The translations under genes and the position numbers were made by a program. 35,762 nt of DNA from a virus (Duplodnaviria; Caudoviricetes), in IMG/VR virus record IMGVR_UViG_3300020045_003575, positions 1-35,762 of that record; one strand, written 5' to 3'. Below, one piece after another: positions 11,779 to 25,264 of the stretch (its first letter is position 1; each line of letters begins with the position of its first letter). Under the pieces are notes generated by a model, which did not search any database, was not told the origin of the DNA, and was given only the letters and a program-made list of their open reading frames with translations.

Positions 11779-12182
11779 AACTGGCATTAATTTTAGCAAT
11801 AACATTGCTTATTTTTTTATTTTACGGTTGCGGTGGAACTCGAAGCGTCACAACCGAAAAACAATCTAATATTACAGTTTCAAATAATTACCAAGAAGGC
11901 TCAAAAATAGTTTTAGGCAATAGTTTTACATACACGCCATTTGATAGCGCAAAACCTATGATAATTGATAGTATAGTGTATAAAAACGTCATTATTAAAA
12001 GCACGAATTTAAAAGTAGTTGAAAAATGGAAAGACCGGAACATCATAAAAACAATTTCAATTGAAAAAAACAAACAAACAGAAAAAAAAGACAATACTAT
12101 TTTATGGATAGGATTGTCTTTCGTGATTTGTTTATTTGTGTTTTTGTGGTTTTATCTTAAAAAGGACAATATTTTTTTTTAG
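11748..12182 (+). CDS. putative unimolecular spanin (lipoprotein with C-terminal TM)
   Basis: Hydrophobic leader ending LFYGC (lipobox-like) plus C-terminal TM; follows the endolysin. Confidence 0.6.
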   Translation: MENYFRKHSLELALILAITLLIFLFYGCGGTRSVTTEKQSNITVSNNYQEGSKIVLGNSFTYTPFDSAKPMIIDSIVYKNVIIKSTNLKVVEKWKDRNIIKTISIEKNKQTEKKDNTILWIGLSFVICLFVFLWFYLKKDNIFF

Positions 12183-12342
12183 GTTTCGGTATTAAATTAG
12201 CGTATTCTTTTTTAATCTTCTCGGCTATTGCATCCCTGATGAATTGCCCAACATCAACATTATATGACTTCATTTTTTGAAGGATTAACAATTGATTTTC
12301 TGAAATACGAATAACCTTTGTTTTTATTAGTAGTTTAGCCAT
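12157..12342 (-). CDS. small ribbon-helix-helix-like DNA-binding protein
   Basis: Likely start ATG 12342: MAKLLIKTKVIRISENQLLILQKMKSYNVDVGQFIRDAIAEKIK; strand (KVIRIS) plus two helices, CopG/Arc-like pattern. Confidence 0.55.
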   Translation of the reverse strand: MAKLLIKTKVIRISENQLLILQKMKSYNVDVGQFIRDAIAEKIKKEYANLIPKPKKKYCPF

Positions 12343-12358
12343 TTTGTAATACAATTTA

Positions 12359-12385
12359 TGCGTGTAGCGGATAGTTATAGGCAAC
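12359..12385. repeat. terminal half-site (attI-like or truncated attC-like) at left end of array
   Basis: TGCGTGTAGCGGATA-GTTATAGGC; core at 12374-12382 is the reverse complement of GCCTATAAC at 12934-12942. Confidence 0.55.
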
Positions 12386-12397
12386 CTTGCGAAAATC

Positions 12398-13009
12398 TTA
12401 AAAGTGGTCGATTTGATTCCCAAATTGAAACCAACCTTCTCTTTTTTCTCGACTGAAAACATCAATCTTATTTTCGTTTGGATATAACGCTTCAATCATT
12501 TTGTAGGCGTATTCAGGTTTACGACTATGCTCCCTTGCTTTTTCTGAAAATACAGTCATAAATTTACCTCTTTGTTCTTTTGCAATAGGTAACATCTTTT
12601 CTTTGTAGTACCATATCAAATATTCGTGAGAATACCGAACAGTAAAAGCGGGAGCAACTCCGTTAGTTTTATCCCAAATAAATCTACAATGCCTTCTGTA
12701 TCCTCTTTTCTCCATATAATTATCACAATCATTTAGATATTGTTCAATAGTCCACATAAATACGGCGTGATTTTCAGCAGTGTTGTTGAGTATTTCTGTA
12801 TCCAACAAATCAAATATTTCAATAGTAGGCATAGTTTTGTAATCTAAACTTCTTCCTTGGTTTGGTCTTGCTTTTCTTAAACCACCTTTCTTTTTTAACC
12901 AAGGGTGATCAATCACCAAAACAGAAAAAAGCTGCCTATAACACGTGCTATAAGAAATAGCGGGTTCTGTGCTTTCTGAAAGTTCGGGTGTATTTGTAAA
13001 ATCTGTCAT
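12398..13009 (-). CDS. MT-A70 family adenine methyltransferase
   Basis: VIDHPW (normally DPPW), VFMWT, FIWDKTNG, REHSRKPE and KIDVFSREKREGWFQFGNQ motifs. Confidence 0.88.
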   Translation of the reverse strand: MTDFTNTPELSESTEPAISYSTCYRQLFSVLVIDHPWLKKKGGLRKARPNQGRSLDYKTMPTIEIFDLLDTEILNNTAENHAVFMWTIEQYLNDCDNYMEKRGYRRHCRFIWDKTNGVAPAFTVRYSHEYLIWYYKEKMLPIAKEQRGKFMTVFSEKAREHSRKPEYAYKMIEALYPNENKIDVFSREKREGWFQFGNQIDHF

Positions 13010-13067
13010 AAATTTAAAGTTTAGTTTTTATTAATCCGCTACTTCTTATAGCACCATACGTTATCAC
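12934..13067. repeat. attC-like palindromic site
   Basis: GCCTATAAC-acGTGCTATAAGAAATAGCGG ... CCGCTACTTCTTATAGCAC-catac-GTTATCAC. Confidence 0.8.
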
Positions 13068-13280
13068 TCATTTTACAGAACGTTTACTGATAACGAGTTC
13101 AGATTTCCTGATAATACAAATTTCATTCTCAAAAGGCGTTTCAAAATTCCATCTGTCAAGTGTAAATTTTGATATTCCAATTTCGTGAGTATTGCATAAA
13201 ATTGTCAAATCTCCGTAGTAAAAATGCTTTTCGTTTTCGATTGCATTTTTAAATTCAATGTGAAATAATTTTTTATTCAT
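13068..13280 (-). CDS. hypothetical protein (cassette)
   Basis: 70-aa ORF whose stop codon abuts the GTTATCAC core. Confidence 0.65.
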   Translation of the reverse strand: MNKKLFHIEFKNAIENEKHFYYGDLTILCNTHEIGISKFTLDRWNFETPFENEICIIRKSELVISKRSVK

Positions 13281-13424
13281 ATCTTAATGATTTTGGAAAC
13301 ATATTACTTTCTTCTGCTTTAGAATCAAACCATTTTACACAAAGCAATCTCCATTCAATTAACTAAATGTGTTTTTTTATTTGTTGGGAGATGTATTTTA
13401 CTTTATGTGTTTGTTCTTTTTTAC

Positions 13425-13494
13425 TTTGGTCTTGAACTGAAAGGTTCGGGATTTATCCTGCCGAAAATCCTCGCAAAGCCACGATACGTTAGCC
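13425..13494. repeat. truncated attC-like site (right arm only)
   Basis: ...CCTCGCAAAGCCACGATAC-GTTAGCC resembles the right arm of the 14414 site (CAAAGCCGCAGGAC-GTT); no left arm found; left bound approximate. Confidence 0.6.
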
Positions 13495-13501
13495 AATATT
13501 A

Positions 13502-14461
13502 TCACGAAACCTCGTTATAATCGACAAATGACTGCTGATAATTAATTTGTGAAACTTGTTGGTAATTAATTTCTTTTTCAGTTTGGTTTGGTTCTAAATC
13601 ATTTGCCGAACAAAATCCGTTACATTCAAATAGTGGTTTAACTGGAATTTCTTTAAAGTCAAATAAACTTTTGTTGTTCGGAAATTGCTTATTTGGAACA
13701 AGAAAAACTAAATCTGCTTTTGGTATTTTTTTAGCTTTTGCAATCGCTTCTTTACTTTGGTCTTTTAACATCGTTACAGCTTCTCCAGATAATTCAGTTA
13801 ATTGTTTTTCAACAACTGCCATTCGTAAATAAGTCATTTTTCTTTCTTTCCACATTTTTTGCCAATAACCCATCCCACCTTGAACGCAACCAGTTTTTAA
13901 ACAATTGTTATTATGAAATCCTAACCAGTAAGCTAATGGAATTGCAATAAATTCATATTTCAAAATTTCAATGCAATCATTTTTTGATAATGCGTGAAAT
14001 AACAAAGGAAATACTGGTTTACTTTCGGGAACATTCCATTTCATTCCTAATGCACGTTTATTTTCTGAAATATCAAATCCAAAAACTTGATGCGTGAACT
14101 TATTTTCTTTTTCCCATTTTTCACGAACTTTTCTTTTTAATTCACTTGAACAAATTGCACCAGTAGCAACATTTAAAGATTTAAACTTATACCAAACATC
14201 TTTTATTTTTTTGTAATCGCTACCAATTCTAGTAATAGTTTCAATTTGTATTCCATACCATTTTTCACAATCAGCTTTAAATCGGTAAGTATCATCATCT
14301 TCATTAAAAGTATCAATGAAAATAATTCTAATACGTTCTTTTCCATAAATCTGAATTGCTAACCAAATTGCAACTGCGGAAGTAACACCTCCAGACCACC
14401 AACAAATAACATCGGCTAACAGTGGTTTTGAGCAAGCGGGTATTTGGTTTAATTCAGTCAT
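13502..14461 (-). CDS. PAPS-reductase-like / PP-loop adenine nucleotide alpha hydrolase family protein
   Basis: WWSGGVTSAVA PP-loop, IFIDT, CSSELKR, LGFHNNNCLKTGCVQGG and ECNGFC cysteine clusters. Confidence 0.8.
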   Translation of the reverse strand: MTELNQIPACSKPLLADVICWWSGGVTSAVAIWLAIQIYGKERIRIIFIDTFNEDDDTYRFKADCEKWYGIQIETITRIGSDYKKIKDVWYKFKSLNVATGAICSSELKRKVREKWEKENKFTHQVFGFDISENKRALGMKWNVPESKPVFPLLFHALSKNDCIEILKYEFIAIPLAYWLGFHNNNCLKTGCVQGGMGYWQKMWKERKMTYLRMAVVEKQLTELSGEAVTMLKDQSKEAIAKAKKIPKADLVFLVPNKQFPNNKSLFDFKEIPVKPLFECNGFCSANDLEPNQTEKEINYQQVSQINYQQSFVDYNEVS

Positions 14462-14543
14462 TGTTTTGTATTTTTATTATTAGTGATTAATTCAATTATT
14501 AAGTTTTATTTTCCCGCCTGCACAAAGCCGCAGGACGTTATAT
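14414..14543. repeat. attC-like palindromic site
   Basis: GGCTAAC-aGTGGTTTTGAGCAAGCGGG ... CCCGCCTGCACAAAGCCGC-aggac-GTTATAT. Confidence 0.8.
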
Positions 14544-14572
14544 TCCAGCTTCGAGCAACTTTCTGGCGAAAG

Positions 14573-14821
14573 CTACTCTGGCTGTTTTTTGTATTTTTCA
14601 AGCCATTCATTATAAACCATTTCAGTTGAATATCCATTATTAAAATGGTCTTTACCGTTTCTGATATATTTTGAAAATTCAATACATTCTTGTTTTTTAT
14701 TTTGTTTCTCTTTTTCTAAAAAAGAATCTTCAATTAATCCTAAAACGCACAATAAATCATAATCGCCTCCATTCTCCGTCATACGTTCAATCATTCCTTT
14801 TAATTCCTGCATTGCTGTCAT
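14573..14821 (-). CDS. hypothetical protein (cassette)
   Basis: 82-aa ORF with ATTATG start context. Confidence 0.65.
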   Translation of the reverse strand: MTAMQELKGMIERMTENGGDYDLLCVLGLIEDSFLEKEKQNKKQECIEFSKYIRNGKDHFNNGYSTEMVYNEWLEKYKKQPE

Positions 14822-14826
14822 AATTT

Positions 14827-14922
14827 CTATTTTTTATAAATAAATTTTGCTATTGTAAATCCTATAAATCCACTTAATATCGATAATATTATTGAGTTTA
14901 TAATTGTATTGTATTCGTTCAT
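14827..14922 (-). CDS. small single-TM protein (31 aa)
   Basis: Read manually: MNEYNTIINSIILSILSGFIGFTIAKFIYKK*, ATTATG start. Confidence 0.45.
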   Translation of the reverse strand: MNEYNTIINSIILSILSGFIGFTIAKFIYKK

Positions 14923-14946
14923 AATTCGTGATGTTAAAAAATATAC

Positions 14947-15078
14947 CTACAACAATATATTGTACTTATAGCTAGATTTTGGTTTAATTTTTTGATTTGT
15001 AATTCTTGTTATTATTGGTCTTAACCCGTTACATTGTGACTTATCATTCGCTACAAGTACAATAAATCGACGTTAGTA
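14947..15078. repeat. attC-like palindromic site
   Basis: CTACAAC-aataTATTGTACTTATAGC ... GCTACAAGTACAATA-aatcgac-GTTAGTA. Confidence 0.75.
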
Positions 15079-15084
15079 GCAAGA

Positions 15085-15291
15085 CTACGATTCAATTTCG
15101 ACAGGAACATCTTTCCAGTCTCTATGCCCTAAATTACTTGTATGTAACTGCTGTAATATTTTTTCTGTTTTAGATGGTAACAAATGAATATTTTCGGGTT
15201 GTACATCCTTTTTTACAAATCTTAATCGCACACTTGGCTCCCATACTTCATCAACAGTTATAGTTGCATAATTAATCTTTTCTTTTTTCAT
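15085..15291 (-). CDS. hypothetical protein (cassette)
   Basis: 68-aa ORF filling one GTT...AAC unit. Confidence 0.65.
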   Translation of the reverse strand: MKKEKINYATITVDEVWEPSVRLRFVKKDVQPENIHLLPSKTEKILQQLHTSNLGHRDWKDVPVEIES

Positions 15292-15337
15292 TTTATTTAG
15301 TTTTTATAATTTAATATTCATTTTAAATTGCCGTCCA

Positions 15338-15475
15338 GCTACTAACATTTGCTAGTAAAAATGGCTTTATGGTTTTGCGTTTGAGTTATTAAGGAGTACT
15401 TAAGTACTGGTTTTTTCTTGCTGGCATCGGTGATTAATTCACACCACTTCTACTAGCAAAATACCGTTACTGGCT
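15338..15475. repeat. attC-like palindromic site
   Basis: GCTACTAAC-aTTTGCTAGTAAAAATGG ... CCACTTCTACTAGCAAA-atacc-GTTACTGGCT. Confidence 0.8.
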
Positions 15476-15869
15476 ATGTTGCGTGAGTCCTATTAAGATC
15501 AATATTCAAATGACAACTATTTCTTCTTGAAATTTCAATCTCATTTGATTCTAAAGCCTTTAAGATTTCTTTAGCATCTTTTTTTATAGTTTTTCTTTCA
15601 ATTCCGTAACCCCAAGAATTATGAGTTCCTTTCACGTTGTTTTTAAAGTCTAAAATTGAATAAACAATACTCTTTTTTAGTTGATTATACGTTTCTGTAA
15701 ATGATGAGAAATTTTCTTTTGCTTCATATTTTATTAAATCCGCATCGTACCATCTATGCAAATCCCTTGTGCATATTGCAAAATTTTCATTAATTTCATT
15801 TACTATCATTGGTGATTTTTCTCCAATAAAATAAACTTCTTGACCTTGTTTTAATTTTTTATTTTCCAT
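15474..15869 (-). CDS. hypothetical protein (cassette)
   Basis: 131-aa ORF whose stop codon overlaps the core GTTACTGGCTA. Confidence 0.7.
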   Translation of the reverse strand: MENKKLKQGQEVYFIGEKSPMIVNEINENFAICTRDLHRWYDADLIKYEAKENFSSFTETYNQLKKSIVYSILDFKNNVKGTHNSWGYGIERKTIKKDAKEILKALESNEIEISRRNSCHLNIDLNRTHAT

Positions 15870-15891
15870 TTTGTTGTGGATTAAAAAACAC

Positions 15892-16029
15892 AGCCAGTAA
15901 CATATGCTACATAATAGCTGGGTTTCGGGTTAAATTTAAAGTTTGTTTTGCACCTAAATTATTAGTCTTAAATCGATACTTTGGTGTGTGCTTTTCCCAT
16001 CCATCGTGTAGCATTCGCCGTTATGCCTA
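15892..16029. repeat. attC-like palindromic site
   Basis: AGCCAGTAAC-atATGCTACATAATAGCTGGG ... CCCATCCATCGTGTAGCAT-tcgcc-GTTATGCCTA. Confidence 0.8.
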
Positions 16030-16032
16030 ATA

Positions 16033-16227
16033 CTACAATATGAATTGTTCATCAATTTCTTTCTCATCAATTTCGTCTAAACTTTGAGGATATTCTTTTT
16101 TTAATTTAATCCATTCTTTTTTAGTCAATACCATTGCCGTAATTAGTCCAATAACATCAGTTCCGTACCATTTTCCGTGAGCAAATCCAATTAATTGTGC
16201 ATCTGCTAAATCCAATTTAGTTGCCAT
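16033..16227 (-). CDS. hypothetical protein (cassette)
   Basis: 64-aa ORF in the promoter-proximal unit. Confidence 0.65.
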   Translation of the reverse strand: MATKLDLADAQLIGFAHGKWYGTDVIGLITAMVLTKKEWIKLKKEYPQSLDEIDEKEIDEQFIL

Positions 16228-16268
16228 AATTTATATTTTTATTTATTTAGTTAATATTTGTTTTTGCC

Positions 16269-16292
16269 GTACTAGGCATAACAGGGCTACAG
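16269..16292. repeat. terminal half-site at right end of array
   Basis: GTACTAGGCATAAC (13/14 complementary to GTTATGCCTAATAC at 16020) followed only by AGGGCTACAG. Confidence 0.6.
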
Positions 16293-16307
16293 TTTAAAAG
16301 TTTAAAG

Positions 16308-16315
16308 CAAAGATA
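16308..16315 (-). promoter_or_regulatory. Bacteroidota -7 promoter box driving the cassette array
   Basis: TATCTTTG on the minus strand matches TAnnTTTG, ~25 bp from the first core. Confidence 0.65.
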
Positions 16316-16335
16316 TAACTTATTTTGATATAAAT

Positions 16336-16389
16336 AACCACCACCACGATAATTTATACTAATTCTAAATTAAGTCTGTGGTGGTGGTT
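16336..16389. promoter_or_regulatory. operator region: 12-bp inverted repeat around a 19-bp palindromic box
   Basis: AACCACCACCAC (16336-16347) / GTGGTGGTGGTT (16378-16389); ATTTATACTAATTCTAAAT (16352-16370). Confidence 0.6.
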
Positions 16390-16406
16390 TATTCAAATAA
16401 CATCCT

Positions 16407-16414
16407 TATATTTG
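16407..16414 (+). promoter_or_regulatory. Bacteroidota -7 promoter box, rightward early operon
   Basis: TATATTTG 25 bp before ATG 16440. Confidence 0.65.
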
Positions 16415-16439
16415 TCAAACAATTTAAAACATAAAAGTT

Positions 16440-16622
16440 ATGCAAGAAATCAAACACCTTTATAAAATGCTCAAGGACAAAAAAGAATTTTGCCAAGAAC
16501 TATCAAAAGAAGTAGAAACAAGTCCGAGAAGCTTGTATAATCATTGGTTCGGAAGTTTCTGGGCAATTCCGGAGAAGTATCAAAATTTAGTATTAACAAG
16601 ATTAAAAGAAAAACAACAATGA
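16440..16622 (+). CDS. Cro-like helix-turn-helix protein
   Basis: 60 aa, first gene after the divergent promoter; FCQELSKEVETSPRSLYNHW HTH-like. Confidence 0.55.
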   Translation: MQEIKHLYKMLKDKKEFCQELSKEVETSPRSLYNHWFGSFWAIPEKYQNLVLTRLKEKQQ

Positions 16623-18981: not shown

Positions 18982-19157
18982 AAAACTACACTGGCGTAAG
19001 CTGGAATAAACAAAAACAGCGGTGGGTATCTAAAGTAGGCATTTACGATTGTGGATACTATACCGACCAAATTGAAGCCGTAAAAGCACGTGATTTATGT
19101 ATAATAAAACACGGATTGGATTATAAGAAATTACAAATTTTAAAACCTAAAGGATGA
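18978..19157 (+). CDS. AP2-domain-like DNA-binding protein (59 aa)
   Basis: Read manually: MKNYTGVSWNKQKQRWVSKVGIYDCGYYTDQIEAVKARD; ATGA overlaps at both ends. Confidence 0.7.
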   Translation: MKNYTGVSWNKQKQRWVSKVGIYDCGYYTDQIEAVKARDLCIIKHGLDYKKLQILKPKG

Positions 19158-19780
19158 GCCTAACAATAACAAACGAGGATAATATGTTGCTTATGGCAAG
19201 ATATCCTGACAATTACTTTGATTTAGCAATAGTAGATCATCCTTATGGGATTTCCATAAATATGAATATGGGACTTCGAAAAGGCAAAAAGAAAAACCAT
19301 ACTGTTAAAAAATGGGATGACGAAACTCCAACTGCGGAATATTTTAATGAATTATTTAGGGTTTCAAAAAATCAAATTATATGGGGGGGGAATTATTTTA
19401 ATTTACCATTAACAAAGTCTTGGATTTTTTGGGATAAAAAAGTACCTAAAGGTGTAGATTTTGCAGACGGAGAGCTTGCTTGGACTTCATTTGACAAAAC
19501 ACTTGTAAAATTAGAAGTGCCTTATTCAGGATTTCAAGGTATGGATGAAAATGGAAAAATACACCCGACACAGAAGCCTGTGAAGTTGTATAAAAATATC
19601 CTTGATAAATGGAGTGTTAAAGACTTTAAAATACTTGATACGCATTTAGGTTCTGGTTCAATTGCAATAGCTTGCCACGATTACGGATTTGATTTGACTG
19701 CTTGTGAACTCGATAAAGAATACTTCGATAAAGCAATGCAAAGAATAAATAACCACATAGCACAACAAAAATTATTTTAA
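19154..19780 (+). CDS. DNA amino-methyltransferase (N6-A/N4-C, beta-type order)
   Basis: FDLAIVDHPYG (normally DPPY), IIWGGNYF, HPTQKPVKLY, ILDTHLGSGS. Confidence 0.9.
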   Translation: MSLTITNEDNMLLMARYPDNYFDLAIVDHPYGISINMNMGLRKGKKKNHTVKKWDDETPTAEYFNELFRVSKNQIIWGGNYFNLPLTKSWIFWDKKVPKGVDFADGELAWTSFDKTLVKLEVPYSGFQGMDENGKIHPTQKPVKLYKNILDKWSVKDFKILDTHLGSGSIAIACHDYGFDLTACELDKEYFDKAMQRINNHIAQQKLF

Positions 19781-19782
19781 CT

Positions 19783-20016
19783 ATGAAAATATTTTTAACA
19801 TCATTTTTTCAAATTGGCTTGGTAGCCATTAATACCTATTTTATTGGACAATTATTTTGGATAGGTATATTTTTAGCATCATTTGGAATTAGTCTATTAT
19901 GGGCGTTTAATGTTTCCAAGGTTGCAATTTCAACTATTAACCAAAAACTAATTTATGCATTTGGTGCCGGATGTGGTGCTATTTGCGGATTAGTTTTGAT
20001 AAAGATTATATTATGA
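19783..20016 (+). CDS. small multi-TM membrane protein
   Basis: 77 aa, hydrophobic. Confidence 0.6.
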   Translation: MKIFLTSFFQIGLVAINTYFIGQLFWIGIFLASFGISLLWAFNVSKVAISTINQKLIYAFGAGCGAICGLVLIKIIL

Positions 20017-20264
20017 CACCAAAACAAAAATCAATAAAAATGCATCTATTCTACTGCCTTATGCAGTTACTACTCGAATGCCTTGACGAATTAAAAGTAA
20101 CAAACCCACGAATGATTGAACTAAAAAACAATCTTACTGAATTTTGTGAGTTGCTGAATGAAGATTGCAAAAACACTTACACGATTCAAAAAACGACGTA
20201 TTTTCAAGGATTGACTAACCAAATAAATACGATGATGCGCAAGTGTTTTAATCCGGAAATGTAA
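20013..20264 (+). CDS. hypothetical protein
   Basis: Likely start ATG 20013 (ATGA overlap). Confidence 0.6.
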   Translation: MTPKQKSIKMHLFYCLMQLLLECLDELKVTNPRMIELKNNLTEFCELLNEDCKNTYTIQKTTYFQGLTNQINTMMRKCFNPEM

Positions 20265-20270
20265 AAAATT

Positions 20271-20918
20271 ATGAATAAAGTATTAGAAGTTTTTGCCGGC
20301 TCCCGTTCAATAGGAAATAAAGCTGAAGAATTAGGTATGGAAGTTTTTTCAGTTGACTGGACTCCGTATGATAAAATAGATTTGGTTATCGACGTGGAAT
20401 TTATGAATGTAAATCATATCCCATGGATTCCCGATGTGGCTTGGTTTAGCCCTGACTGCACTACTTATACCGTTGCTGCAATTTCAACTCACAGAAATGG
20501 TACAGAGCCAAAAAGTGAATATGCTAAAAAATGTGATAGAGTAAATAAAAATTGGATTGATTTAATATATCAAATGATGTGGCAAAATCCAGATATGGTT
20601 TTCTTTATCGAAAATCCAAGGGGGATGTTAAGGCATATGCCATTTATGAAAGACTTTAAAAGACATACGGTTTGGTATTGCCAATATGGTGATGATAGAG
20701 CAAAGCCCACCGATATATGGACAAATTCAAAAACTTGGATTCCTAGATGCGAATGTAAAAATTACAAATATGATAAAGATGGAAATATCATTGATAAACA
20801 TTGCCATCACGAAAGCGCAAGACGTGGAGCAAAAACAGGAACGCAAGGAAAAAAAGGAAGCTATGAGCGTTCTAAAATTCCAGAACAATTGTGTGAGGAA
20901 ATATTGAAAAGTTTATGA
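20271..20918 (+). CDS. DNA cytosine-C5 methyltransferase-like protein
   Basis: VLEVFAGSRS (motif I), FSPDCTTY (motif IV), FIENP (motif VI), YCQYG..RAKPTDIW. Confidence 0.8.
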   Translation: MNKVLEVFAGSRSIGNKAEELGMEVFSVDWTPYDKIDLVIDVEFMNVNHIPWIPDVAWFSPDCTTYTVAAISTHRNGTEPKSEYAKKCDRVNKNWIDLIYQMMWQNPDMVFFIENPRGMLRHMPFMKDFKRHTVWYCQYGDDRAKPTDIWTNSKTWIPRCECKNYKYDKDGNIIDKHCHHESARRGAKTGTQGKKGSYERSKIPEQLCEEILKSL

Positions 20919-21342: not shown

Positions 21343-22032
21343 ATGAATGAATTAACAACTACAACAGTAAATGAAACTGTTCAAATGGCAAAGCTTTTTG
21401 CCGAAAGCGGAATGTTTACAGATGCTAAACAAATGTCGCAGGCGTTTGTAAAAGTGCAGGCTGGTAAAGAAATGGGAATCGGTGCATTTGCATCTATGAC
21501 AGGAATTAATATCATAATGGGAAAACCAACATTAGGGGCTGGATTAATTGCAAGTTGTGTAAAAGGAAATGAAAAATACGATTTTAAAGTTAAGGAATTG
21601 ACGGATAAAGTTTGTTCTATTGATTTCTTTCAGAAATCAGTTAATGGAATGGAGTTTATTGGAAACTCAACCTTTACAATTGAGGACGCTAAAAAACAAG
21701 GCACAAAAAACCTTGATAAATTTCCTAAAAATATGTTGTACGCACGTGCAATTAGTAACGGTCAAAAATGGTTTTGTCCAGATGTATTTCAAATGTCTGT
21801 TTATGTACCGGAAGAAATGCCAGAAGTTACAGAAGATGTGCAACACGTGGAAGTAATTATTGAGGAAGTGAAAACACCTAAATTAAACCAAAAACAACTC
21901 GACAAGCTATTGACTTCTGACATTTCCACTATTGAAAAATATTTGGATTTAATCGAACAAAACAAATTAGAAGTTAACGATGTTCAAAAATCACAAATTG
22001 ATATTTATTACGAAACTTTAAAAACTGAATAA
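21343..22032 (+). CDS. single-strand annealing protein (RecT/Red-beta-like)
   Basis: FVKVQAGKEMGIG..SMTGINII.GKP, FTIEDAKK, FPKNMLYARAISNG.KWFCPDV...VYVPEEM. Confidence 0.75.
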   Translation: MNELTTTTVNETVQMAKLFAESGMFTDAKQMSQAFVKVQAGKEMGIGAFASMTGINIIMGKPTLGAGLIASCVKGNEKYDFKVKELTDKVCSIDFFQKSVNGMEFIGNSTFTIEDAKKQGTKNLDKFPKNMLYARAISNGQKWFCPDVFQMSVYVPEEMPEVTEDVQHVEVIIEEVKTPKLNQKQLDKLLTSDISTIEKYLDLIEQNKLEVNDVQKSQIDIYYETLKTE

Positions 22033-23650: not shown

Positions 23651-25264
23651 ATGAAAAAATTTGAATTAAACCCGGAACAACTCGAATTAAAAACTACCCT
23701 TTTGGACTGGATTAAAAATAACAATACAGGATATTTTGGAGTTCTTGGAGCTGGTGGAACAGGAAAAACAACGGTTGTTTGTAATGTACTTGCGGACATT
23801 AAGGAATCAGTTATATTTTTGGGAGCAACAAATAAGGTGGTTACGGTACTTAAAGAAAGTCTTATAAGTAATGGAGTTGACAATCCAACAACAAAAACAA
23901 TTGATTCATTTTTAGGATTTAGAATTGTAAAAGACCACGAAAATAAAAACACAATTACTTACAGATTGCCTTCTGCAAAACAGATTCCAGATATTATTGT
24001 TATTGATGAGGTTTCAATGATAACTTTTCAAAAAATTGAACAGATTGAAAAACTTGCCACAAAATGCAAAATTATTTTATTGGGCGATTATTTGCAATTG
24101 CCTCCAATTGAAGAAGATAAATTTAATGTTGTGAGAAATCCTGATGGATTTTTAATATCGAGGGTATTCACTAAACTTTCAGACACTAATTCATTCACGC
24201 TTACAATCCAAAACCGCCAGCGGATGGATTCCAAAATGGGTCAATTAATTGCAAATTTTCGCAATTTTATGGATAAAAAAATTGACCCTAAACTACTGGC
24301 AAACAAAAAAAATAATGGCTTGGATATACTTTTCTTTAAAACAAATGATAAAAGTCTGAAAGACTACATAAAAGAAAATGATGCAGTTGCGGTGTGTTTC
24401 AAAAACTTAACTGTTTTATCGTTAAATTGGTTAATTGGAAGCACAAAATCAATGCGTAAAGATTATCGATTGAATGAAATTAATATTGGTGATAAATTGA
24501 TGTTTGATCAATTTTATATTCACGAAGAAAAACAAAAGAAAACGCAATTTTACACGTCAAATATAGTTACAGTTAAAAGCATAGTGACAAATTGCGAGGA
24601 GAAATTTAAAATAAAACCAATAATTACAAAAAACATTATTTACAACCGAATAACCGTTATTGATGAGTACGAAAACGAAAGCGAAATTAGATACATACAC
24701 GGAGGATTGTATGGACAAAATGGCGGTGGCGTGAGTAGTTCGGTTTATGGACAAAGAACAACTTATTTAAAACACATAAAAGAAAATAAAAACATTGAGG
24801 AAAATAAAAAATTCCTTAAAGACCTAAACACAAGATTTTCAGACTACCAAAACAGTTTTGCAAAATTAAAACGTCCTTATGCCATCACGTGCCATAAAGC
24901 ACAAGGAAGTACGTATAAAAATGTAATAATACCAGTTTACGATTTTTATTCTTTGAATTACAAAGATGCCAACCAATTGCTTTATGTAGCAATGAGTCGA
25001 GCAAAGGAAAAAATTATTTTTATTGATAAATCTGAACAATTTGATGACACAAGTAAACGTCATTCGTTTTCTGAATTTGAAAAACAATCAATTTGCAGCG
25101 CATACAATTATAAATGCAATGTTTGCCGAACTGATTTAGTAGAAAGAGAGTTCGACATTGACCATAAAATTCAAATCGCTTCTGGAGGTAAAAATAGTAT
25201 TGAAAATTTGCAACCACTTTGTAAAAATTGTCATAAAAAAAAGACTGCATTTGAAAAATATTAG
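23651..25264 (+). CDS. SF1B (Dda/RecD-like) helicase fused to a C-terminal HNH nuclease
   Basis: GAGGTGKT, ATNK, IVIDEVSM, LLGDYLQLPPI, YAITCHKAQGSTY, YVAMSRA; then CNVC...IDHKIQIASGGKNSIENLQPLCKNCH. Confidence 0.88.
   Translation: MKKFELNPEQLELKTTLLDWIKNNNTGYFGVLGAGGTGKTTVVCNVLADIKESVIFLGATNKVVTVLKESLISNGVDNPTTKTIDSFLGFRIVKDHENKNTITYRLPSAKQIPDIIVIDEVSMITFQKIEQIEKLATKCKIILLGDYLQLPPIEEDKFNVVRNPDGFLISRVFTKLSDTNSFTLTIQNRQRMDSKMGQLIANFRNFMDKKIDPKLLANKKNNGLDILFFKTNDKSLKDYIKENDAVAVCFKNLTVLSLNWLIGSTKSMRKDYRLNEINIGDKLMFDQFYIHEEKQKKTQFYTSNIVTVKSIVTNCEEKFKIKPIITKNIIYNRITVIDEYENESEIRYIHGGLYGQNGGGVSSSVYGQRTTYLKHIKENKNIEENKKFLKDLNTRFSDYQNSFAKLKRPYAITCHKAQGSTYKNVIIPVYDFYSLNYKDANQLLYVAMSRAKEKIIFIDKSEQFDDTSKRHSFSEFEKQSICSAYNYKCNVCRTDLVEREFDIDHKIQIASGGKNSIENLQPLCKNCHKKKTAFEKY

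Follow-up and report, generated by a model that had tools for sequence, protein, structure and literature searches.

A probable integron-like cassette platform, likely dependent on a recombinase supplied in trans, in a phage related to Flavobacterium phages

The viral record IMGVR_UViG_3300020045_003575 was analysed over its whole length (35,762 bases, linear, estimated completeness 91%; hereafter the window) with regard to an array of gene cassettes on its minus strand. The window encodes terminase, portal, capsid and tail proteins, a glycoside hydrolase 19 endolysin, a RecT-like protein, a helicase and methyltransferases, and no integrase was found among its annotated proteins. Flavobacterium phages make up 48 of the 59 records with the best DNA matches; the closest relatives of this phage thus appear to infect Flavobacterium, and because of these matches its own host is presumed to be Flavobacterium as well. 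Placed between the lysis genes and the early genes, the array is the only minus-strand gene block of the window. It comprises seven units (U1 to U7) with sites S1 to S6 between them, and is headed by a small gene, called the anchor gene here, and by a candidate insertion site, the docking site:

12157..12342, minus strand: anchor gene of 61 amino acids (aa), likely encoding a ribbon-helix-helix (RHH) DNA-binding protein; 74 viral relatives at 64-95% identity
12345..12353, no strand: near-palindrome TGTAATACA, possible operator for the anchor protein; conservation of each position 85-98% over 61 distinct loci
12354..12383, plus strand: attI-like docking site with crossover G/TT between 12374 and 12375, from the comparison of 75 anchor loci
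12375..13060, plus strand: U1 with site S1 (12940-13062); MT-A70-family DNA methyltransferase gene 12398-13009 (minus), open frame starting inside S1
13061..13488, plus strand: U2 with decayed site S2 (13362-13490); 70-aa gene 13068-13280 (minus)
13489..14537, plus strand: U3 with site S3 (14418-14539); PAPS-reductase-domain gene 13502-14461 (minus), frame starting inside S3
14538..15072, plus strand: chimeric U4 with site S4 (14951-15074); 82-aa gene 14573-14821 and 31-aa open reading frame at about 14827-14922 (minus)
15073..15466, plus strand: U5 with site S5 (15344-15468); 68-aa gene 15085-15291 (minus)
15467..16020, plus strand: U6 with site S6 (15899-16022); 131-aa gene 15474-15869 (minus)
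16021..16292, plus strand: U7; 64-aa gene 16033-16227 (minus), site cut short after AAC at 16280
16308..16315, minus strand: TAnnTTTG motif, candidate array promoter, the sole minus-strand match in 12100-16500

The array and its docking site

A reading made from the letters of this DNA (the sequence-only reading) had described the region from 12359 onwards as an integron-like array without an integrase. All ten core motifs that it named were found in place, each of them single-copy in the window, and all seven array genes are co-oriented on the minus strand, as it had claimed. When the 7 bases after GTT were compared with the complement of the 7 bases before AAC, U1 to U7 gave 7, 0, 6, 2, 6, 7 and 7 matches; the five units with complementary ends could thus be recovered (at least 6 of 7 bases in 5/7 units), a result equalled by 2 of 5040 permutations of the ends. 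The palindromes between units exist in the number of six AAC-to-GTT sites, with the 3-4 extra nucleotides (nt) in the right arm that had been described, and their measured length is 122-129 nt instead of about 125-135 bp. A covariance model scored these six sites only above 18 bits in the window; five were training members, and S2, which was not in the training set, reached 26 bits (E 0.002). Folding of both strands as single-stranded DNA (ssDNA), proposed as a check of the sequence-only reading, was clearly positive for S1 (z -3.8 top, -3.0 bottom against shuffles) and weakly so for S3 (z -2.2 bottom). For S3-S6 the minus strand, which is the bottom strand, folds at lower energy than the top strand, and AAC-GTT pairing was seen on the bottom strand in S1, S4, S5 and S6 and on the top strand in none. 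The array sites were not resolved by a generic repeat finder, an Rfam search gave three chance-level matches with nothing relevant to the sites, and no match was obtained for S3 among plasmids or for U1 among GenBank phages. The Rz-like gene, used as a probe, retrieved no relatives.

The TAnnTTTG motif, which we take to be a Bacteroidota promoter element, lies at 16308-16315 in the window; it is also found in the matching region of related loci (given by L numbers here) L048 and L036/L084, and is absent in L085, L027 and L180. Sigma-70 and terminator scans remained at chance level.

The anchor gene, just left of the 12359 start, and the docking site had not been recognised in the sequence-only reading. 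After the anchor start, TGTAATAC followed by GTT(A/G) is present on the top strand in 67 of 75 anchor loci, window included, and the distance from the palindrome to GTT(A/G) is 29 nt in 60 of the 61 distinct loci with enough sequence. Across these 61 loci, positions 1 to 13 on the left side of the docking site are 85-100% conserved, and the 12-mer behind GTTA takes 55 different forms; in seven groups of loci the left 30 nt are identical and the cassettes behind them differ. By comparison, the docking site is a fixed non-hairpin site with a G/TT insertion point, as is attI. Of the anchor loci that offer 800 nt of upstream sequence, 61/68 have a site in it, compared with 6/69 of the control loci (endolysin-selected, without anchor gene), and the sites at anchor loci number 146 upstream in the expected orientation versus 8 elsewhere. 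The array of Muminvirus mumin6-1 is headed by a distant anchor homologue with a similar junction. An invariant A stands seven bases after GTTA in 61/61 first cassettes, which suggests a core longer than GTTRRRY. Short palindromic inserts without an obvious gene occupy position 1 in L268 and L284 and are possibly gene-less cassettes. In L014, L034, L044, L073, L078, L080 and L081 another gene abuts a motif-less anchor and upstream sites remain; these arrays have possibly lost their docking site.

The anchor protein is likely an RHH protein. Its predicted model (monomer, pLDDT, a per-residue confidence score, of 85) has a strand-like N-terminus followed by two helices, and two fold searches returned mostly RHH proteins as top matches, all weak and none significant (E at least 0.9; Z up to 3.9). 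A weak RelB-type match was also found, and nothing meaningful appeared when its profile was searched against PDB sequences. No similarity was found to the N-terminal extension of the host integrase, and kinship with it was rejected. A chromosomal anchor family was not found; the anchor-gene query gave 2 loci in the genome collection. The near-palindrome TGTAATACA has one exact copy in the window and one-mismatch copies fewer than chance; the idea of further copies was rejected.

Turnover at GTT, polarity and site architecture

Nine records of 6H-like F. psychrophilum phages have a common anchor and different sequence after GTTA. Behind the anchor the unit order is ABCDEFG in D15, HABCDEFG in D35, LMBEFG in 2A, MEFGNO in F7, DEFCPBG in L018, G..EGIJK in 6H and G..IJK in 23T, while L019 and L020 begin with other units; a few units in these orders are merged, as the unit splitter overlooked some sites. 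D35 thus has the units of D15 and, at position 1, a further one of 390 nt, L018 holds units of D15 in a new order, and phage 6H repeats one unit at position 1. BLAST blocks between these phages end within GTTA. The comparison of related phages that had been proposed with the sequence-only reading therefore shows gain at position 1, loss, reordering and duplication, all at GTT.

The units of the window behave likewise. In contigs of 8 public runs, U1, U4, U5, U6 and U7 start or change at their GTT. A copy of U1 (88%) starts there at 12374 behind other sequence, and S1 is 97% identical in L050, on another gene. U2 has an 86% copy in L189 with the same GTT start and a different neighbour in front. 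Variants of U3, about 94% alike, switch to a different site body after 14430. The left end of U4 resembles L046 and L016, and its right end L086, L187 and L074. A U5 homologue is the first unit behind the docking site in L038, and other left and right neighbours of U5 occur in the public-run contigs. U6 is 99% identical elsewhere, as contigs from two runs start at 15465 and differ from it at 3-4 positions in 408-447 nt, and S6 precedes other cassettes in other contigs. U7, the oldest unit of the array, has a copy in run X6 that starts at 16019 behind another arm; cut-off last sites like its own are also found in L048 and L036. With breakpoints at G/TT in related phages and window units in other contexts, the idea of a shufflable accessory-gene platform has gained support, and the cassette array is real and, judged by comparison, active in the lineage. 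A joint in run X8 leading from 14541 back to 13566 was considered as a U3 circle and rejected; it is better explained by a neighbouring S3-like site, because that variant has another site body after 14430.

Second arrays in opposite orientation were noted in the same phage contigs (L036:957-2680, L071:3564-4443, L074:2-1069). L036 is a genome with terminal repeats and without a tyrosine recombinase, and a short Xer-like gene, accompanied by a docking-like site of its own (L253), was seen on the L074 contig as well.

Pairs of sites with at least 90% likeness numbered 52. The left neighbour alone is common to the two sites in 11 of these pairs, the right alone in none, both neighbours in 3 and neither in 38. 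This polarity implies that a site travels with its left unit, that crossover occurs at the right-hand GTT, and that the plus strand is the top strand; since the hairpin moves with the left unit, the phage genes are antisense to those of classical cassettes. The same follows from the docking site lying at the far end from the proposed promoter: an integron has its Pc promoter upstream of attI and co-oriented with the genes, and here the candidate promoter is at the other end. The gene is antisense in 102/105 phage units and sense in 34/36 chromosomal units. The first ATG lies inside the site in 43 of the 102 antisense phage frames, as for U1 and U3, and on these ATG positions the cassette genes are candidates for taking their start codon from their hairpin. 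The 38 pairs without a shared neighbour show one site body reused on different genes, and in one of 7 pairs that agree in gene start the site bodies are unrelated. Exchange at the AAC end was rejected as the main route, with no pair sharing the right neighbour alone, and was kept as a minor one. Core matches of at least 5 of 6 bases were counted in 49/74 units of related arrays, versus a mean of 3.7 (maximum 11) in 2000 shuffles.

For 37 sites, mostly stem-finder picks, the stem covariation score is 0.597 versus 0.165 when shuffled and at most 0.112 when slid. On their top strand A.C exceeds G.T by 101 to 32, with the stem finder weighing both alike, and two positions are nearly fixed (35/37 and 34/37). 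Both fixed wobbles are repeated in the held-out sites of chromosomes (59/59 and 55/59) and phages (72/74 and 61/74), and the bias (A.C top, G.T bottom) is equal in the two groups despite their opposite gene orientation. All held-out sites have 2-4 extra bases in the right arm and stems that pair without a bulge; in ungapped registers of 17 positions, 849/1003 and 981/1258 cells are Watson-Crick. The bottom strand folds better in 47/59 chromosomal and 59/74 phage held-out sites, with stems selected by the model. Complementary AAC/GTT cores across the own cassette and a palindrome conserved in structure over sequence, the latter with selection bias, are shared with attC sites, as the sequence-only reading had held. 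The extrahelical bases near L'' that belong to attC are not present; the extra bases are in the spacer, on the crossover-side arm.

The linked Xer-like recombinase

A six-frame PF00589 search gave 0 tyrosine recombinase candidates in the window, a record 91% complete, and matched 14/14 control genomes. The statement that no recombinase is visible in a nearly complete genome was thus borne out. The search was extended to 49 anchor-bearing records (45 of the 74 viral relatives and 4 others) and L093; completeness reaches 90% or more in 19 of the anchor records, and 13 of these, among them the two that have terminal repeats, gave no PF00589 match. Because docking sites are intact and diversifying and no recombinase gene was found, supply in trans is the simplest reading, and the enzyme is likely provided by the host or another phage. 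The place that intI holds next to attI is taken by the 61-aa gene, unrelated to integrase; in related phages the cassette recombinase occupies this very position. The 177-aa 'integrase' of phage 6H was rejected as the cassette enzyme; it is the C-terminal half of a prophage integrase whose gene is split by the record ends (L003:11-544 with 46338-46978), far from the array.

The custom covariance model, run on 141 genomes of the host-type order (that of G001, which holds a Crocinitomicaceae contig; presumably the Flavobacteriales), matched 79, so that a search suggested with the sequence-only reading was successful. In 20 stretches around model matches, an Xer-like gene lies directly upstream of a co-oriented array in three (L202, L203, L216), many chromosomal arrays and genes there ending at contig breaks. 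The L216 enzyme matches 72/141 genomes at E 1e-60 or better, and at least 13 genomes, among the matches listed (150 of 308), have a site downstream of the Xer-like gene on the same strand within 12 kb. Relatives of the L093 enzyme are encoded at 22 phage loci. Sites occur at 17 of these loci, and 48/48 sites lie upstream in antisense orientation, which is the anchor-gene geometry. The docking sites of anchor, host and phage-integrase loci have a common layout with a TA-rich box about five bases before GTT; a candidate docking site is present in 16/22 host loci, and several are close to the anchor type.

Four array-linked enzymes scored 180-223 bits against the TIGR02249 cut-off of 265, in two stretches (4/4 below), and 161-192 bits against the XerC/XerD NCBIfam cut-offs of 330-335. 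Between the catalytic boxes, where VchIntIA has 58 residues, L216 has 16, so that the I2 insertion is missing, and the closest solved sequence relative is an archaeal XerA-like protein. The linked recombinase is consequently not of the IntI type that had been assumed. Within the sense array next to the integrase in L202 (L202:4882-5331, G016:C14), an antisense 103-aa cassette with a short site has a phage-type look; no homologue was found among the analysed phage loci. Two identical 310-aa tyrosine recombinase genes, each adjoining a site match, were seen at L219:8794-9921 and 13292-14415 (G026:C1) and possibly represent a mobile element using or carrying these sites.

Explanation, alternatives and known systems

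The locus is probably a non-autonomous integron-like platform, in which hairpin-bounded cassettes behind an attI-like site would be exchanged at G/TT by a trans-supplied Xer-like recombinase. The cassettes are lined up behind this fixed site next to the likely RHH gene, each composed, by comparison, of TT-core, antisense gene, core-AAC, hairpin body and G; breakpoints at GTT and entry of new units directly behind the docking site are shown in the same way, as is the presence of the same sites beside an I2-less recombinase in chromosomes and other phages. Excision and insertion at G/TT would likely be carried out by an Xer-like tyrosine recombinase from the host or a co-infecting phage. The substrate of this enzyme may be the folded bottom (minus) strand, which would be singled out by the asymmetry of the spacer (3-4 nt) and by a pair of fixed G.T wobbles, not by extrahelical bases, and excision would produce a circle whose two cores pair fully. 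The array is presumably read from its far end, and new cassettes would therefore come last in the transcript. In many cases the hairpin of a cassette may furnish its gene with both the start codon and an N-terminal leader, and the small anchor protein could bind the palindrome and regulate its own gene or docking-site access. Cargo such as the U1 methyltransferase and the U3 protein, with a PAPS-reductase domain and a weak SspD match, would modify DNA and so help against host restriction. The system works like an integron, yet its enzymes and sites fall outside IntI and attC by the membership tests applied.

Several observations weigh against this explanation. An excised circle, looked for as had been proposed, was not seen in contigs of the 8 public runs, and the window cassettes were not found in 401 host-type-order genomes (2 candidates scored per genome). 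About 9% of the phage genome may be missing, and a tyrosine recombinase is present in 6/19 near-complete relatives, four of them with about 400 aa, a fifth truncated where its contig ends and the sixth a short 269-aa frame. The docking motif is absent in 8/75 anchor loci, one of them owing to a contig end, and the RHH fold of the anchor protein is weakly supported. Pairing statistics are inflated, because the sites were selected by the stem finder or by a model trained on them, and taken singly S2 and S4-S6 fold weakly versus shuffles. In 106/500 shuffles, pairs with two-sided change were at least as numerous as in the data. The left arm of S2 has decayed with loss of pairing and U4 is a chimera of two cassettes; the window array therefore also changes by other routes. 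The P12002L site attC2 was recombined by IntI1 (PMC9892861).

The platform could be real in the lineage and the array of the window a leftover without site-specific recombination, as decayed S2, fused U4, the last site cut short, the lack of a recombinase in the record and of a circle in the 8 runs would suggest. We regard this as improbable, as the docking site is undamaged here and has been conserved by relatives that have no integrase, first cassettes differ in 55/61 loci and behind identical docking sites in seven groups, and U6 occurs 99% identical in contigs that start from its GTT.

It is slightly harder to credit that a different enzyme acts in trans, namely host XerCD, a true IntI, a prophage integrase or the product of a gene in the unassembled part of the genome. 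The record is 91% complete, the tyrosine recombinases of the six relatives are mostly of about 400 aa, and IntI1 did use attC2 of P12002L (Qi et al. 2023, PMC9892861). It is the short Xer-like family, however, that is physically linked to the sites in chromosomes and phages, host docking sites resemble that of the anchor, 13/19 relatives (two with terminal repeats) are without a tyrosine recombinase, and the IntegronFinder 2.0 report (PMC9024848) gives almost no complete integrons in Bacteroidetes.

Shuffling by homology between similar hairpins, driven by the phage RecT-like annealing protein (RecT-like gene, 21343-22032) or host RecA and without a site-specific enzyme, is very unlikely as the main process and may be a secondary route. 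Site bodies at least 90% alike between unrelated genes (38 pairs), the change of body inside the left arm in U3 variants and the U4 chimera fit it, but units are inserted at the docking site, where hairpin homology is lacking, breakpoints are at GTT to the base, and the polarity is 11 to 0.

Least credible of all is that the hairpins are mRNA structures for processing or translation control and that recombination needs just short double-stranded cores: the better-folding phage strand is the mRNA strand and 43/102 frames start inside a site, but chromosomal mRNA is the other strand and nevertheless the wobbles (59/59 and 55/59) and the bottom-strand bias (47/59) persist there, an argument not fully independent because the model was trained on these features. 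An added RNA role beside recombination may exist.

Clusters of attC sites lacking integron integrases (CALINs) in phages are already published; for the docking platform and linked enzyme no description was found in the literature searched. Qi et al. 2023 (PMC9892861) reported 17 phage CALINs, including that of Polaribacter phage P12002L, whose attC1 has the architecture of the window sites; IntI1 recombined its attC2 and not attC1, the sole failure among six sites. No Flavobacterium phage is named in the accessible part of the supplement of that paper. With these CALINs the window shares a cluster of attC-like sites in a phage, the absence of intI, methyltransferase cargo, and the strand called bottom there, which is the strand proposed here. 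In contrast to the window lineage, with its fixed docking site and GTT turnover shown by comparison, Qi et al. gave 2-4 predicted sites per phage, suggested illegitimate capture, and described no attI, anchor gene, turnover, antisense rule or cognate enzyme. In the literature searched, which covered few subscription papers, no description of the anchor, the antisense rule or an I2-less enzyme was found.

Like class 1 and Vibrio cholerae integrons, the system has a G/TT crossover, AAC/GTT hairpins with core complementarity, a fixed non-hairpin insertion site, a tendency of the bottom strand to fold better, a gene that diverges from the docking site and homogeneous sites in chromosomal arrays. 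It differs in the linked recombinase without I2, in ungapped stems with 2-4 extra bases on the crossover-side arm, in antisense phage genes, and in a 61-aa non-enzyme at the intI position. According to PMC5027507, the classical attC site carries two or three extrahelical bases, located on the arm that lies across from the cleaved AAC. Integrative mobile elements exploiting Xer (IMEX) of the CTXphi type, with XerC/XerD/XerA, likewise involve a phage using a host Xer-type enzyme on folded ssDNA without I2 (PMC7790495), but CTXphi integrates at dif and the reaction in the window would build gene arrays inside a phage genome; the linked enzymes are also far under the XerC and XerD cut-offs. The anchor protein resembles RHH regulators (CopG, Arc, omega, ParD, RelB) in size, predicted strand-helix-helix pattern, top fold matches and adjacent palindrome, and differs from them in that all matches are weak and its position beside the docking site is fixed.

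As a tentative extension, somewhat short of an even chance, flavobacteria and their phages might share a second integron lineage, with I2-less Xer-like enzymes and ssDNA sites without extrahelical bases. Small phages would have shed the enzyme and kept an active, RHH-gated docking site, and the system would run backwards, the hairpin giving start codon and leader. If true, it would be a living version of the step before I2, or after its loss. I2 is thought to let integron integrases handle ssDNA hairpins, and direct proof is lacking because I2 deletion kills IntI1 (PMC7790495). An enzyme that naturally lacks I2 and has a hairpin family to itself opens this role to testing and bears on the proposed viral and Xer-like origin of integrons. 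Model matches in 79/141 genomes, set against the near-zero count by IntegronFinder 2.0 (PMC9024848), imply that a large gene-exchange system may escape standard tools. The system would also offer a mechanism by which methyltransferase-rich regions vary among Flavobacterium phages, the 6H-like ones that infect a fish pathogen included.

Outside the array, two more DNA methyltransferase genes and a helicase with a C-terminal HNH domain were noted (window 19154-20918 and 23651-25264). A long inverted repeat at 16329-16395, with arms ACCACCACC / GGTGGTGGT, lies upstream of a 60-aa gene and is kept in L048 and L036/L084. It is flanked by divergent TAnnTTTG motifs at 16308 (minus) and 16407 (plus) and is a candidate operator of an early switch.

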